From Mobula hypostoma (lineage: Eukaryota): a stretch of 64,000 bases of DNA. The notes beneath the pieces are model-generated. The model saw nothing but the letters and a program-made list of their open reading frames with translations. It did no database searches and was not told the origin of the DNA. Positions 14,264 to 21,110 of this stretch are shown one piece after another; within the stretch, counting starts at the first letter, position 1, and every line of letters starts with the position of its first letter. The DNA is taken from the NCBI RefSeq assembly GCF_963921235.1, contig NC_086097.1, forward strand, positions 2,914,001-2,978,000, given 5' to 3'. Made by a program: the position numbers and the translations under genes.

Positions 14264-16451
14264 GTGAGTTAATAAAGCAAATATCAACATAATAATGTAG
14301 TACAATGGTTAAAAATATCCAGGGGAGGAGATACCGGAGGCGGTGTGGGCGAGAGCTGGAGTCCATGCTGGGTTGGGGCTGCCTTCCAGAATTTGCTTGC
14401 TGGAACACGAGTTGGTTTGCGTTCATCAGCAGCTGTACTAGCACGTGATGATGACTGCTGTGTGGTGGTCCTTGCAGAAACGTGTCTCCAGGACAACATT
14501 GCATGCACCATCAATCTTCAGGCTACGATACTCAGGAAGCTGGACTATATATTTAATTGTGACTGTTTTTTGCTGTCGTGACTATATATGTGCTGACAGT
14601 GACTGTTGATGCAGTTTTGCACCTTGGCCCCTGGAAAATGTTTTGTTTGGCTGTATTAATATGTACGGGTGAATGACAATTAAACTTGAACTTGAAATGT
14701 GTTGGAGCTGCATGACATCACAGTACTTTGTAACAAAGCAATTCTGGCATTCATCATTTTATAAAGTGGAGATGACCCAAGATTAATCGAGATAACAAAT
14801 ACAAATCAGCAAAAGAGATATATCAGCACACACAAAAGGCAGGAGGGACTCAGCAGGCCAGGCAGCATCTGTGGAAACGAATAAACAGTTGATGTTTTGG
14901 GCCGAGCACCTTTATCAGAACACCTTTATTACTTCAGTTTGTGAAAAGAGATATAGCTGTCATTTGGATAAGTTTTAGACCATAAGATTTAGGAGCAGAA
15001 ATAGGCCATTTGGCCCATCGAGTCTGCTCCACCATTCAATCATGGGCTGATCCACTTCATCCAGTCATCCCCACTCCCCTGCTTTCACCCCATACCCTAT
15101 GATACCCTGGCTAATCAAGAACCTATTTACCTCTGCCTTAAATATACCCAATGACTTGGCCTCCACAGCCGCTCGTGGCAACAAATGCTACCCTCTGACT
15201 AAAGTAATTTCTCCGCATCTCTGTTCTAACAGGACGTCCTTCAATCCCGAAGTTGTGCCCTCTTGTCCTAGAAACTCCTACCATGGGAAATAACTCTGCC
15301 ATATCTAATCTGTTCAGGCCTTTTAACATTTGGAATATTTCTATGAGATCCCCCTCATTCTCCTGAACTCCAGGGAATACAGCCCAAGAGCTGCCAGACG
15401 TTCCTCATATGGTAACCCTTTCATTCCTGGAATCATTCTTGTGAGCCTTCTCTGAACCGTTTCCAATGTCAGTATGTCCTTTCTAAAATAAGGAGCCCAA
15501 AACTACACACAATAGGCCAAGTGTAGTCTCATGAGTGCCTTATAGAGCCTCAACATCACATCCCTGCTCTTATATTCTATACCTCTAGAGATGAATGCCG
15601 ACATTACATTCGCCTTCTTCACAACCGACTCAATCTGCGGGTTAACCTTTAGGATATCTTGCACAAGGACACGCAAGTCCCCTTGCATCTCTGCATTTTG
15701 AATTCTCTCCCCATCTAAATAATAGTCTGCTCGTTTACTTCTTCCACCAAAGTGCATGACCATACACTTTCCAACATCGTACTTCATTTGCCACTTCTTT
15801 GCCCATTCTCCAAAACTGTCTAAGTCTCTCTGCAGGCTCTCTGTTTCCTCAACACTACCCGCTCCTCCACATATCTTTGTATCATCGGCAAATTTAGCCG
15901 CAAATCCCTTAATACCGCTGTCCAAATCATTGACATACATTGTAAAAAGCAGTGGTCCCAACACCGACCCCTGTGGAACTCCACTGGTAACCGGCAGCCA
16001 GCCAGAATAGGATCCCTTTATTCCCACTCTCTGTTTTCTGCCAATCAGCCAATGCCACACCCATGCTAGTAACTTCCCTGTAATTCCATGGGCTCTTAAC
16101 TTGTTAAGCAGCCTCATGTGTGACACCTTGTCAAAGGCCTTTTGAAAATCCAAGTACAGCACATCTACTGCGTCTCCTTTGTCTACCCTGCTTGTAATTT
16201 CCTCAAAGAATTGCAGTAGGTTAGTCAGGCAGGATCTTCCTCTCAGGAAACCATGTTGGCTTTGGCCGATGTTGTCATGTGTCTCCAGGTACACCGTAAT
16301 CTCATCCCTAACAATCGATTCCAACAACTTCGCAACCACTGATGTCAGGCTAACAGGTCTATAGTTTCCTTTTTGCTGCCTCCCACCCTTCTTAAATAGT
16401 GGAGTAACATTTGCAATTTTCCAGTCATCCGGTACAATGCCAGAATCTATC

Positions 16452-16620
16452 TGTACTGTATAGCTACTGTATAATACTGCATGTGCTATTAGGCATGTAT
16501 TGATCTGTACGTGTATGTTCAGAGTTTGGTTTCAGTCAGTAAAGAACCCTGTTAACTTAGCTCCTGTCTCCAGCATTTTTATTTATAGGTTTGTTGTGTA
16601 ACCCGGCCACATACACAATA
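16452..16620 (+). repeat. 5' LTR
   Basis: About 90% identical by eye (~17 mismatches) to 19666-19887 apart from a ~53-bp indel. Confidence 0.9.
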
Positions 16621-16986
16621 AATTGACAACAAGGTTAATGAACCTACATCATATTGGAACGCCGTGTTTTAATTGATAACGACACCTGGAAGGAGAGCGC
16701 AAGGTATGAGCCAAGGCAGAGCGAGGCCGTGAGTCCGAAAGGAAACAGAAGCACAGCTGCAGGTCGGGAACATTGGGAGACCAAGAGAACAGTCGGAGCA
16801 GCAGCATATCCAGCCGAGACCACAGCCGGCGCTGACCCCAGGGGCTGAGGGTCTGCCTGCCCCAGAAGGGAGATAAAAAGAAGCAACACACACATCTAGA
16901 CGGAGTGCGCTCATGGCGCTAGCAAAAAGGACACATGAGTCAAAAAGAAAACAAGGGGAATATGGGGCTAAACTAACATAACAAAG

Positions 16987-17975
16987 ATGGCGTTGATTGG
17001 AACCATTACAGATTTGATAGTGGCACTGAAGACTGGGCAATTTACATTGAAAGAGTGGAGTTATATTGTGAGGATAATGGTGTTAATGATGAAAAGAAAG
17101 CCAGCGTCTTACTCAGTATTATGGGAGCAAAAACTTATGGGCTGCTTCGGAGTTAACCCCTGAAAAGCCAGCTGACAAAACGTTCAAGCAAATAGTAGAC
17201 ACTCTCCAACAGCGTTTAAACCCCAAACAACTGGCCATTGCTGAAAGATTTAAATTTCACAAACGGAATCAGAGCAAAAACGGAAGCATTTCTGAATATT
17301 GTGCTGAATTGAGCAAATTATCAGAACATTGTCAATTTGGAGCTGGTCTATCGCACGCATTGAGGGACAGGTTAGTGTGTGGCATGCACTGTGAAGCCAC
17401 ACAGAAGAAGCTCCTGGGTGAAAAAGACCTTACATTAGAGAAGACGCTGAACATTGCAATATCAATGGAAACAGCAGCATGGGGTGCTTCAGAGATACAA
17501 CAAAAATCTCTGGAATATGCTACAAATAAAATGTCACTGAGCAGAAACAAAGGAAGGAAATGTTACTGTTGTGGGAATGTGTCACATGACCCTGAGGACT
17601 GTTGGTTTAAAGACAAAGAATGCAGAAACTGTGGCAAACAGGGCCACACTGGCAGAGTATGCAAAGCTAGTAAACAGCAGAAAAAGGACAAAATACAGAG
17701 AAACAAGAAACCCCAGAAAGGAAAACACAACAATGAAAGAAGGCTAAAACGAACTAAACTACTGCTAAAGCCTTACACAGGACAGAAAGTGCATCCCAAA
17801 GGTAAAATTAAAGTGACAGTGACCCACGGAGGTAAAACACAGCAACTGACCCTCTATGTACTGAAAAAGGGAGGACCACCATTACTGGGACGTGAATGGA
17901 TCAGGAAAATCCAGTTGGATTGGCACACCATCAAGACACTAGATGTGTTAACAAAGGAGGGCAGCTTGGCGGAGA
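16987..17975 (+). pseudogene. Gypsy gag plus partial aspartic protease (frameshifted 5' part)
   Basis: ATG 16987 MALIGTI.., [37 protein letters not shown] knuckles [14 protein letters not shown] and [14 protein letters not shown], protease C-half PLLGREW lacking the DTG site. Confidence 0.88.
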
Positions 17976-17977
17976 AG

Positions 17978-18647
17978 ATGTCCGCAGCTCTCCTCTCACC
18001 CATTGTCGACTATTACAACAACGAGGAGTTAGACAGCGTCGATGATGAGGACGAACGCAGTATCCGTGGCTGCGACTCGGATGAAGATACAGAGGATGCA
18101 AGGGAGACAAATACTGCCAATAAGCAGGATGATGAAGACTACCTGGAAGTAAAAGAGCAGATGTACCAGGAAAAATTGACATCTCCCAAAAGACAGCTAC
18201 AGCAGATACAGGAAGGCACTTTGCAGGAGTATCAGAAAAGGATGAAGAAACTAGGTCAACAATACAAGGAAAGAATACGAAATGCAGAGCTTTTTCTGCA
18301 ACTGGAGCCAGAATAACTTGAAAGGAATTATATTAAAGAGAAAAAAGCAGCAGTGAAGGAATTTGAAGATAAAAAGATTGAGTTAGAAGGGAAAAAAGAG
18401 GATTGAGTATGAGAGGCTAACAATGGAACTCACAGGAGATTCTATGGAGGTAAAGCCAATAATGACTAAGAAACTAAGGAGGAGACCTAATGACCCTGTT
18501 CCAATTACAGACAAAAGACAAAAACCTGCACCTGCGCAGTTAAATTACTTGTTGACAGATGAACAGATAGTGGAAGACCTGTGAACTCTCAATAACCTTA
18601 AATCTCCGAAAAGACCTGCATCTCCATCTTCTCCTGAACAATTTCCT
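17978..18647 (+). pseudogene. SUDS3: Processed SUDS3 (Sin3/HDAC complex subunit SDS3) retrocopy fragment, in frame with gag
   Basis: [58 protein letters not shown], then after TAA 18314-18316 ERNYIKEKKAAVKEFEDKK, and after a deletion/frameshift [57 protein letters not shown]; no introns; C-terminal part missing. Confidence 0.92.
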
Positions 18648-19440
18648 TGGGAAAGATCCATGAAAATTGGTCATCCCTTAAAAGCTCTCGGACAAAATCA
18701 ATTCCATTCAAACAGAACAGTTTTCGCACAAGGTAAATCTTGAACCAATCATTTCCTCCATTGAGAATCATTCACTTAATCCTTTGCACTGAAGTTTCTT
18801 TTGCACGTACATATTTTGAATCCTCAGTCAATGTGTCTTGTTTTGCACAAAGAAGTTGGGAATCAGCATCAAAACAGAGGTGAATTCTGGCAACAAACTG
18901 TGAGGTTTCTATTGTTGTATTTTCACACTTGTGCTGAGTGTGCGTCTGAAGGAATTCCCCGTCTTGAGTCAGGTCCGCACTCTCTTCTTGCACTGTGCAC
19001 AACTGGGAGTTTTCATACATAGAATCCTCCAGACAATTCAGAAACAGTGCATAGAGTTCAGTCTCATTTCCTTGACCAAGATTTGTTTTTTGAACTTTAG
19101 ACAGATAGCACTGCAGGTAATCCTTAATATCAGCAAAACTGTACTTTAACAGCAGCTTAAGAACAATGGAATGAGCAACAGGATTTTGATCAACTGCTTC
19201 TTCAAGTAATGAATGATTACTGGTAAAGTGCTGATCTTTCTGTGAGTCATTGGATTACCCGGACTTTTGAATAACTAGCAGAGACAGCAGATCACCAACC
19301 ACTTCTTTTGGAAACCAAAGCTACGGAAAATGCATCACACCTCTTGCGAAATATAACTAATTTTGCTACAGCTTCACTTATTTCTTCTGTTACTGCTGGT
19401 ACATAATCATCATCTAGAGAAATATGACACAGTGGGCAGA
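18631..19440 (-). pseudogene. RNF213: Processed RNF213 (mysterin) fragment, end of RING through following E3 region, antisense to the element
   Basis: Minus strand reads CPLCHISLDDDYVPAVTEEISEAV..FRKRCDAF..KEVVGDLLSLL..SIVLKLLLKYSFADIKDYLQ..TELYALFLNCLEDS..VARIHLCFD..NDWFKIYLVRKL..WIFPKEIV, matching RNF213 (human VILKLLLKYSFHDVKDYIQ, TELYMLFINCLEDS, NDWHRVYLVRKL, WVFPKDVV); two stops and one deletion. Confidence 0.88.
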
Positions 19441-19665
19441 GTCCCCCCCAGAGACTTGAGTTATAAATGGGTCTTAGACCAAAAGTGGAAAAAAAAGGCT
19501 TGTTATAATTTGATATTATTACGTTACTTTGTTATAATTTGATATTGTTAAGTTACTAAGTAAACAATTTGTAGGCATTTGTATGTTAAGGGTAAACATA
19601 CTTGTTTAGCGTAGTGCCCCAGTAAAAAAAAAGGTTGATACACTATTAAAATAAAAGGGGAGGAG

Positions 19666-19887
19666 TGTACTGTTCAGCTACTATATAATATGGGACTACT
19701 TTATGTTGTAGGGACATGTTGCATGCGCTATTATGCATGTACTGAGCATGCGCTATTAGGTGCGTATTGATCTGTAGGAGTGTGTTCAGAGTTCGGTTTC
19801 AGTCAGTAAAGAGCCCTGTTAACCTAGCTCCCGTCTCCAGCGTTTTTATTTATAGCTTTGTTGTGTAACCCGGCCACATACACAACA
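19666..19887 (+). repeat. 3' LTR (followed by PBS-like motif and a duplicated LTR tip to 19915)
   Basis: Follows the PPT; TGTACTG...CACAACA. Confidence 0.9.
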
Positions 19888-21110
19888 AATTGGTGACAAG
19901 GTCACATACACAACACTATCGATTCGTGAAAGATCACCGTTGACGCCTCCGCAATCTCTTCAGCTACTTCCTTCAGAACCCGAGGGTAAATTCCATCAGG
20001 TCCAGCAGATTTATCCAACCTCAGACCATTAAGCTTCCTGAGCAGCTTCTCAGTCGTAATTTTCACTGCACAAACCTCACTCCCCTGACACTCTTGAATG
20101 TCCGGTATACTGCAGACGTCTTTCACTGTGAAGACTGATGCAAAATACGCATTCAGTTCCACTGCCATCTCTGTACCTTTCGTTACAATATCTCCAGCGT
20201 CATTTAGTATTGGTCCTATATCTACCCTCGACTCTCTTTTACCCTTTATATATCTAAAAAAGCTTTTAGTATCTTCTTTAATATTAGTCGCCAGCTTCCT
20301 CTCATAATTCATCTTTTCCTTCCGAATATCCTTCTTAGTTTCCTTCTGCAAGTTTTTAGAAGCTCCCCAATCCTCTATCTTCCCATTCCCTCAGGGGTGG
20401 AAATTTTTGAAACATTTATGGAAATGTTTCCGACTACCACATAGTTCCTATGGGAGGACCACAATCTTGCCGTAGGGGTCGGAGGTTTGTATGCCTGAAT
20501 GACCCATTGAGCTCTGTTGGCTGGAGTTGGGGCTTTATGCTTTGGTTCTTGGTCGGGTCACCCATGCCGAACAGATCAAAGGTAAAGGCCAGACTAAGAA
20601 TGGTCCTCTTTGTTTGGGAGTTCTGCTCAGGGCAAACAACCGTGATTGGTCAAAAAAGTTGTCATGGAAACAGCAATGAAAAATCCTTATATATCTGTGT
20701 GCGATCAAGGACAGACAGAGATGGAGGACCTTCATTGCTGCCCTAAACACCAGTGAGAAAGCCACATAGTTACTCTTAGGGGAAAAATAATTTATTGGCT
20801 GTAAAGAAAATGAAATTCTGATCAATCAACCCTTTGTCAGTGAGGTACTCAAGTAAATGTACTTTTCAATTGAGATGAATGGCTTCAACACTGTGAACTC
20901 ACCCATGAGAAAGGGTCTTGGCCTGAAACATTGACTGCTTATTCATTTCCATAGATGCTGCCTGATCTTCTAAGTTCCCGCAGTGTTTTGTGTGTGCTGC
21001 TCTGGATTTTCAATATCTGCAGAATCTCTTGTCATTGTCAACCCACCCTCTCTGTTTTTGGATATTGAAAGTTAGTTGCTTTTACTTGAACCTCTGTTGT
21101 TCTTTCTCAG

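Follow-up and report, generated by a model that had tools for sequence, protein, structure and literature searches.

A Ty3/gypsy-type LTR retrotransposon family in a ray genome, probably transducing host genes, with a SUDS3 cDNA joined in frame to gag-protease

Results

The window analyzed here is a stretch of 64,000 nt from the Mobula hypostoma genome (contig NC_086097.1, positions 2,914,001 to 2,978,000; positions below are those of the window). At 16452–19915 it holds what we take to be one old, decayed copy of a non-autonomous long terminal repeat (LTR) retrotransposon family of the Ty3/gypsy type that transduces host genes, a reading to which we give a probability of roughly 0.8. Inside this copy, an open frame on the plus strand (17093–18316; 407 codons, stop to stop) passes in order through a gag core, two CCHC knuckles (17561–17602 and 17621–17662), a protease remnant, seven linker residues and 112 codons of SUDS3, and ends at a TAA (18314–18316). 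SDS3, the product of SUDS3, is a core subunit of the Sin3-histone deacetylase (HDAC) silencing complex. A preliminary description of this DNA had pointed out both the frame and the two knuckles; both are real, and only the length it gave for the frame, 335 aa, falls short. The gag gene occupies 16987–17735 on the plus strand (tblastn with the related polyprotein P0002; Pfam Retrotrans_gag), beginning with an ATG at 16987 and carrying a frameshift near 17150. Applied to the fusion frame, Pfam returns Retrotrans_gag with E = 1.6e-5, and Sds3 with E = 0.0013 at 19.2 bits, below the gathering cut-off of 25.4.

The C-terminal half of a retropepsin-type protease follows at 17744–17958 (plus strand), 92%–93% identical in DNA sequence to the autonomous copy L056 until the switch point described below. 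It had been remarked that this protease half lacks its catalytic DTG, which is correct for the window copy and does not hold for the ancestor. At 17735–17744 about 218 nt have been lost, and the half of the protease with the catalytic D-T/S-G motif went with them; we regard the deletion as private to the window copy because 28 of 29 other loci (L010 could not be assessed) hold 200–235 nt between the same two positions. This additional stretch translates as ...MELDTGSALTVI..., and 25 of 30 copies have a motif of the D[TS]G type. Pfam matches to gag-asp_proteas and RVP are found in a more complete copy, L026, both below their gathering scores.

The SUDS3 part of the window (17978–18646, plus strand) is intronless and corresponds to parental codons 1–233, matching 10 consecutive exons of the parental gene in blastn. 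We located this gene through a degenerate pattern for eight residues that are missing in the element family, which had one match in the 3.48 Gb of the genome searched. The gene lies on the minus strand at G000:C78:8380638–8439639 and has 12 coding exons; its protein is that of an NCBI model named for Mobula birostris, minus 8 residues that the model takes from intron 9. Intron 7 of the gene (about 8395737–8398853 on the same contig, loci L037 and L038) has AT-AC ends and an ATATCC donor, and is of the U12 type. Family copies match the parental exons end to end, with the introns absent, and the DNA identity between the cargo of the window copy and the exons is 93%–97% in most exons and 77%–88% in two. 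Their cDNA starts 19 nt 5' of the ATG, has no poly(A), and ends either 113 nt (A-short) or 342 nt (A-long) into the SUDS3 3' untranslated region (UTR). On the evidence of its sequence, the cargo is a copy of a processed (spliced) host mRNA.

In the window this cargo is broken three times: by the TAA at 18314–18316, by a frameshifting 26-nt gap at 18392, and by a second stop at 18582–18584. The copy is decayed, as had been supposed; the TAA does fall on a Gln codon (parental codon 114), and the homology to SUDS3 that had been seen beyond it runs to codon 233 (18646). By its DNA identity the SUDS3 part of the window derives from SUDS3, yet, judged from its Pfam score and reading frame, it is not a functional member of the SDS3 family (PF08598). 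The 26-nt gap is made up of 24 nt lost family-wide and 2 nt lost privately. About 36 of the 39 copies aligned to the parent, namely the 30 fetched loci plus nine others, lack the same 24 in-frame nucleotides, 28 of them with exactly that gap and about 8 with additional indels, and the parental version of the stretch is bordered by the 6-nt repeat TGAGTT. The idea that the ancestral element carried a truncated corepressor subunit does not hold, as other copies have the complete SUDS3 coding sequence and the 113 or 342 nt of 3'UTR.

The 5' switch point was placed by a three-way comparison between chimeras, parental gene and a 1.1-kb piece of L056 that covers the 5' join. L056 matches the chimeras at 92%–93% identity through the protease to ...AAGGAGGGCAGC, and then continues into a reverse transcriptase (RT) with a YLDD box, whereas the parental 5'UTR reads ...GGCGGGCAGCTCGGCGGGGAAG-ATG. 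The 7 nt GGGCAGC (17959–17965, plus strand) are common to the element and to the parental 5'UTR, and the template switch is therefore placed within them. The next 12 nt (17966–17977) are those preceding the parental ATG and are read as in-frame linker residues, so that the GC-rich linker had rightly been likened to a 5'UTR: the join region is the 19 nt before the parental SUDS3 ATG. The 5' join is the signature of microsimilarity-dependent template switching known from LTR-mediated retroposition, as described by Tan et al. (2016, Genome Res, PMC5131818). At the other end of the cDNA, comparison of L003, L009, L016 and L020 with L005–L008 and others distinguishes two forms. In the first, 342 nt of 3'UTR lead directly to ...GAAGACCCC; in the second, 113 nt of 3'UTR are followed by 18 more nt (RTTACCCGGAGAGGCAGA) ahead of the same point.

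The join is found throughout the genome. A 351-nt query across it yielded 644 candidates; 40 of these were scored, and every one extends across the join with 90%–93% identity. A 29-nt junction pattern (at most 2 mismatches) occurs at 326 places on many contigs, versus none for the reversed-pattern control. All 30 fetched loci have the identical join, with differences being point changes, mostly at CpG, and 27 keep the ATG. The same join at 326 places argues for a single capture that was then amplified. We sampled 59 copies, 57 of which were aligned for the final tests; they represent a small, non-random share of the family (best-scoring matches and zero-mismatch junctions). Among contigs of uncertain kind from four sequencing runs, none of which is on record as RNA, some in X1 (record 3) and X20 (record 26) cross the join, and one in X16 (record 18) has the form of the host SUDS3 mRNA, including the 5'UTR of the parental gene and the 24 nt missing from the family.

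The chimera has no RT, RNase H or integrase of its own and is therefore non-autonomous. A search with the gag-protease protein P0001 gave 23,828 candidates at first look, related families included; among the 131 matches scored, 56 reach residues 291–303 (the autonomous form), 69 end at residues 266–273 (the chimera form), and 6 do otherwise. The related polyprotein P0002 is 60% identical in gag-protease and contains Pfam RVT_1; the solved structure most similar to its RT is that of Ty3 (E = 1.5e-38). Among the sequences already fetched there was no close autonomous copy, only a distant gypsy-like gag-pol remnant near SUDS3. This remnant lies upstream of the gene (G000:C78, about 8447968–8449986; L042) and is 35%–48% identical to P0002.

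The 5' LTR (16452–16621, plus strand) begins TGTACTG, and two internal gaps make it shorter than the 3' LTR (19666–19888, plus strand); the direct repeat between the 5' LTR and 19746–19902 has 89% identity over 157 nt, and the termini TGTACTG...ACAACA are of the TG...CA type. A primer-binding-site-like stretch, AATTGACAACAAGGT..., and the 5' leader fill 16622–16986 and adjoin the LTR end here and in other copies. At the 3' side, an internal region common to all subfamilies (19439–19647, plus strand; other copies align to 19443–19887) leads to the polypurine tract AAAATAAAAGGGGAGGAG (19648–19665, plus strand), directly 5' of the TGTACTG with which the 3' LTR starts. A 5-nt target-site duplication, CTATC, flanks the whole (16447–16451 on the left, identical at 19916–19920 on the right). 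The window copy has in these TG...CA LTRs, the polypurine tract and the 5-bp duplication the structural hallmarks of Ty3/gypsy elements. The 3' LTR alignments of other copies end at 19887/19888; the window has 27 nt more (19889–19915, plus strand), first a copy of the 14 primer-binding-site-like nt and then the LTR's final 13 nt once more; they may be the trace of an aberrant strand transfer.

The target of the insertion was a long interspersed nuclear element (LINE). Its RT open reading frame (ORF), on the minus strand at 15503–16451 and 19921–20390 (Pfam RVT_1, E = 1.3e-31), is interrupted by the LTR element; the frame ...VIFHESI / DSGIVPDDWK... is rejoined across the 5-bp duplication, and ...FHESIDSGIVP... 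is restored once 16452–19920 is removed. Short tandem duplications are seen within the LTR element, of 29 nt at 19500–19557 in the 3' internal region and of 25 nt at 19721–19770 inside the 3' LTR; the 25-mer of the latter is single copy in the 5' LTR.

We judged the founder frame by tallying breaks copy by copy, in place of building a consensus. Among 39 copies, stops in SUDS3 are either private or recurrent at CGA codons (12/39, 11/35, 7/34, 6/17 and 3/17), and each frameshifting indel occurs in one or two copies. Among 30 copies, stops in gag-protease recur at three sites (12/28, 5/28 and 4/27) and are otherwise private, and frame changes are dispersed, with no more than five per 10-residue bin; in three copies a single frame runs over all 402 gag-protease-linker codons. 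Since no stop or frameshift is common to more than half of the copies, the founder, as read from these sequences, very probably had a continuous frame and encoded a single Gag-protease-SDS3 polyprotein of about 713 codons (402 plus 311 of SDS3). The proposal of an ancestral in-frame Gag-SUDS3 fusion is sustained, with the join in 30 of 30 copies and no break in the majority (CGA breaks at most 12/28 and 12/39); the shared stops or frameshifts in gag upstream of the fusion that had been named as evidence to the contrary are absent from the majority of the 30 copies.

Decay followed insertion, given that the breaks are private or recurrent CGA-to-stop changes. No copy among the 30 has the whole frame intact (the longest run of open codons, 497, is in L026), and the SUDS3 part is unbroken over its covered length in 2 of 39, both with partial SUDS3. 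At non-CpG sites, copies differ by 0.058–0.067 from one another and by 0.036–0.043 from the parent. The window copy stands at 0.049 from the parent (0.063 with CpG sites), in agreement with half of its own LTR–LTR divergence. The subfamilies are similar in age.

Two further host genes are found in the family. In the window subfamily, SUDS3 is cut at codon 233 and joined through overlapping homology to about 810 nt of an RNF213-like sequence, which takes the place of the 3' third of SUDS3. In the window this fragment is antisense (18628–19438, minus strand), contains stops and overlaps the end of SUDS3 by about 10–19 nt; it matches residues 505–786 of P0121, a skate "RNF213-like" protein, with E = 4.8e-49 at 61% identity (62%–63% in tblastn). 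A first look with the RNF213 segment gave 150 candidates, with 47 matches among the 40 candidates scored, and other copies hold longer RNF213-like pieces (residues 392–791). We did not find the parental RNF213 gene: all 42 genome matches to P0121 fall in residues 339–791, which is the range held by the chimeras, and several of them adjoin chimera copies found previously. In another variant (L010, L012 and L027), SUDS3 ends near coding nucleotide 375 and is followed in sense orientation by a YBX1 cDNA (e.g., L027:2100–2819 in the orientation of the element), which begins in the YBX1 5'UTR some 70 nt ahead of the ATG and includes the cold-shock domain; the YBX1 part has matches at 20 places or more in the genome. 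Later template switches brought in both the antisense RNF213-like piece and the YBX1 cDNA.

To measure selection on the SUDS3 cargo, we scored variants against the host coding sequence (CDS) and classed them by the number of copies carrying them, first in 39 copies and then in 57. The neutral expectation of nonsynonymous to synonymous changes (N:S) is 2.18 for transitions and 6.14 for transversions. Singletons show 151:64 among transitions and 285:43 among transversions. Variants in two or more copies, and in fewer than 80% of them, show 138:61 and 56:19, respectively, and those in four or more copies, with the same upper bound, 32:9 and 6:2. Singletons and shared transitions fit the neutral expectation. 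A pooled comparison of N:S between shared variants and singletons (odds ratio [OR] 0.60, p = 0.003) was discarded, being confounded by transition/transversion make-up; once stratified, only transversions differ. Variants at intermediate frequency are very few; this leaves the selection test low in power, and it indicates that the family radiated as a burst. Read as a whole, these counts place SUDS3 under no clear constraint.

Discussion

The anatomy of the element suggests how the chimera could have arisen. Inside the particle of an autonomous element, a spliced SUDS3 mRNA would have been packaged along with the element RNA, and the RT would have jumped to it from the 3' region of the latter. 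Having copied the mRNA from its 3'UTR up to a point 19 nt ahead of the ATG, the enzyme would have gone back to its first template through the 7-nt microhomology just past the protease. The outcome would have been a sense SUDS3 cDNA in place of RT, RNase H and integrase, in the same frame as gag-protease by luck. Because the LTRs, leader, primer-binding region, polypurine tract, gag and protease were all kept, the chimera could have been copied in trans by autonomous relatives and so have reached hundreds of places. We consider it fairly likely that SUDS3 was a passenger in this spread and not a device of the element; derivatives with a truncated SDS3, from which the C-terminal third or more is lost, still reached many copies.

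Several observations weigh against this account. A functional fusion, too, would be expected to lie in sense, to be joined in frame and to go back to an intact founder frame. Shared transversions in the cargo are short of amino acid changes, both relative to singletons (OR 0.44, p = 0.012) and relative to the neutral expectation (binomial p = 0.011). This deficit is confined to the class of variants in two to three copies, which may be mostly recurrent mutation. Mild constraint may nevertheless have acted on the cargo during the spread, because the deficit is similar in size to that in gag-protease (transversion OR 0.32, p = 0.0002) and in protease alone (0.50, p = 0.07). The 14 family-wide differences from the parent comprise 3 nonsynonymous and 11 synonymous changes; we rejected this ratio as a sign of constraint, as synonymous drift of the host gene itself since the capture accounts for the silent changes. 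As for the mechanism, mobilization in trans is something we infer from the parts retained, and our comparison of switch points with an autonomous element covers the 5' join. Nor are the 113-nt and 342-nt 3' joins simple deletions of one another; the history was therefore more complex than one clean event, and the two forms suggest later recombination with SUDS3 mRNA or with autonomous RNA.

A different possibility is that the element profited from the Gag-protease-SDS3 polyprotein, or from SDS3 after its release by the protease: as a decoy or dominant-negative subunit of Sin3-HDAC, it might have relaxed the silencing to which the family was subject. In favor of this, SUDS3 is fused in sense and in the frame of gag-protease, a founder frame of about 713 codons very probably had no interruption, and the shared variants show the deficit of amino acid-changing transversions just described (p about 0.01). 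Of the 131 top gag-protease matches, 69 are chimeras, which are thus no less frequent than their closest autonomous relatives (56), and all structural variants seen retain SDS3 codons 1 to about 125, a pattern biased by the fact that copies were found through the join. However, a chance join is in frame one time in three. No deficit is seen in variants carried by four or more copies, for which identity by descent is likeliest (38:11 overall, and transitions at 32:9 against an expected 2.18), and by simple counting most "shared" variants in two to three copies could be recurrent. The window subfamily spread despite the loss of the whole capped Tudor domain (residues 250–326 in mouse Sds3, according to PMC8800102), and the pickups of YBX1 and antisense RNF213 point to error-prone switching rather than to choice of cargo. 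An anti-silencing decoy, which the preliminary description had offered as speculation, is left unsupported by cargo variants that fit neutral N:S both as singletons and at higher frequency, and we consider it unlikely.

A broader version of this idea is that the lineage collected, as accessory genes, host genes that bear on its own control. YBX1 is an RNA-packaging protein, and human RNF213 is an interferon-induced antiviral and antimicrobial ligase. Were this so, the SDS3 part would have weakened silencing by deacetylases where particles assemble or integration takes place, the antisense RNF213 RNA would have lowered a restriction factor, and the comparable numbers of chimeras and autonomous relatives would be explained. 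We think it quite improbable that the three cargoes were assembled in this way.

It is more doubtful still that some copies were adopted by the host as "SDS3-like" retrogenes, through which the family would matter. NCBI "SDS3-like" models of two species, Mobula birostris and M. hypostoma, bear marks of the family, namely the 8-residue deletion and protease-linker residues (the marked models, together with the Hemitrygon akajei model described below, are P0010–P0013, P0015, P0019, P0120 and P0126). P0120 has the upstream protease-linker residues in addition to the deletion, P0010 and P0013 are full length at 311 residues, and for P0010 and P0120 the Pfam Sds3 score exceeds its threshold. Chance alone, though, would be expected to leave a few intact frames of 311 codons among more than 300 copies with decay of about 4%–6% (an estimate, not a computed value), and gene models alone are no proof of expression or constraint. 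Only 2 of 39 copies analyzed here are without SUDS3 breaks, both of them partial, and the SUDS3 of the window copy is broken three times. Domesticated Gag genes of the Arc/PEG10 type are single conserved loci with an intact, constrained ORF; such a gene is ruled out here by a multi-copy family with no whole frame intact in 30 copies.

Finally, a LINE-made processed SUDS3 pseudogene that landed by chance in an old gag-protease fragment would account for an intronless cargo at a locus where LINE elements are abundant, but the identical join at 326 places refutes a single-locus pseudogene of this kind, and the cDNA has no poly(A), ends within the 3'UTR, shows element microhomology at the join and lacks a target-site duplication of its own, the duplication flanking the whole LTR element instead, so that we give this origin practically no weight.

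The chimeric LTR element that we prefer as an explanation resembles several known systems. In gag-onc retroviral genomes (gag-myc, gag-abl), pol is replaced by host cDNA, which is expressed as Gag-X; these genomes depend on helpers and arise by non-homologous recombination during reverse transcription. Like the family described here, they are replication-defective, with host cDNA in the place of pol read as one Gag-X protein; unlike it, they are exogenous, somatic and selected for transformation, whereas the present family is endogenous, lives in the germline and gives no sign of such an effect. ETn/MusD are non-autonomous LTR elements that outnumber their helpers. They and MaLR/MERVL, mentioned as a non-autonomous LTR case by Tan et al. 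(2016; PMC5131818), likewise have no RT or integrase, have LTRs in common with an autonomous partner and attain high copy numbers, but have no host coding sequence fused to gag.

The closest parallel is LTR-mediated retroposition, which, according to Tan et al. (2016; PMC5131818), includes re-copying as non-autonomous elements and multi-gene chimeras. The features by which such chimeras are recognized are all found in our family: intronless cDNA in place of element ORFs, microsimilarity at the switch point (median 6 bp in that study, 7 nt here), no poly(A), no target-site duplication of the cDNA, which CTATC brackets only together with the whole element, and a join common to the copies. As in that work, host cDNA has replaced part of the internal ORFs, is 3'-truncated, and was re-copied within a non-autonomous element. 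The chimeras reported there are single- or few-copy, in contrast to at least 326 junction-bearing copies here, and what sets our family apart is an in-frame cargo behind gag-protease, three serial cargoes and a cartilaginous fish as host. Maize Bs1, as described in that study, is an LTR retrotransposon with pieces of three host genes and the same switch points in all copies; it differs in being a plant element with 1–5 copies and partial exon fragments, whereas the full coding sequence was taken up here.

Germline capture followed by multiplication in a non-mammalian vertebrate is known from the crocodilian endogenous retroviruses (ERVs) CrocERV29 (KIT-ligand) and CrocERV31 (nectin3), whose captures are older than a speciation event, as Chong et al. 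(2014; PMC4299795) report. These are retroviruses with 9 (KIT-ligand) and 6 (nectin3) copies; the KIT-ligand capture cost no ERV domain and nectin3 replaced env, whereas here pol was replaced. The same authors report purifying selection on the cargo, unlike the gypsy-type family described here, with hundreds of copies and no clear selection. In the portions of the literature that our search returned, we found no paper joining SUDS3 with a retrotransposon and gag in this sense, and nothing relevant on Mobula transposable elements or on gene capture in elasmobranchs.

The kind of process is already known; the family is remarkable for its copy number, for a full CDS fused in frame, for three serial cargoes and for its host group. 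In the germline of a vertebrate, LTR-mediated capture, elsewhere mostly single- or few-copy, can give rise to hundreds of copies; what was amplified here is a complete host coding sequence joined to Gag-protease, in a lineage that later added two more host genes. The family offers many natural replicates for the study of template switching, of the fate of transduced genes and of the benefit of cargo to an element.

The family also explains several "SDS3-like" genes and one "Y-box-binding protein 1-like" gene in ray annotations. The latter, an NCBI model from Hemitrygon akajei, consists of the gag N-terminus, the protease end, the same linker and SDS3 residues 1–57, and continues with the YBX1 cold-shock domain and a tail read from the antisense RNF213 piece. 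Such models look like they were built on element copies and not on duplicates of host genes; as pieces of an element, they are therefore not to be counted as gene duplications. If the species label of the H. akajei model is right, the element family with all three cargoes would exist in a second ray family, and its presence in a mobulid-type and a dasyatid ray means that it may serve as a dated marker.

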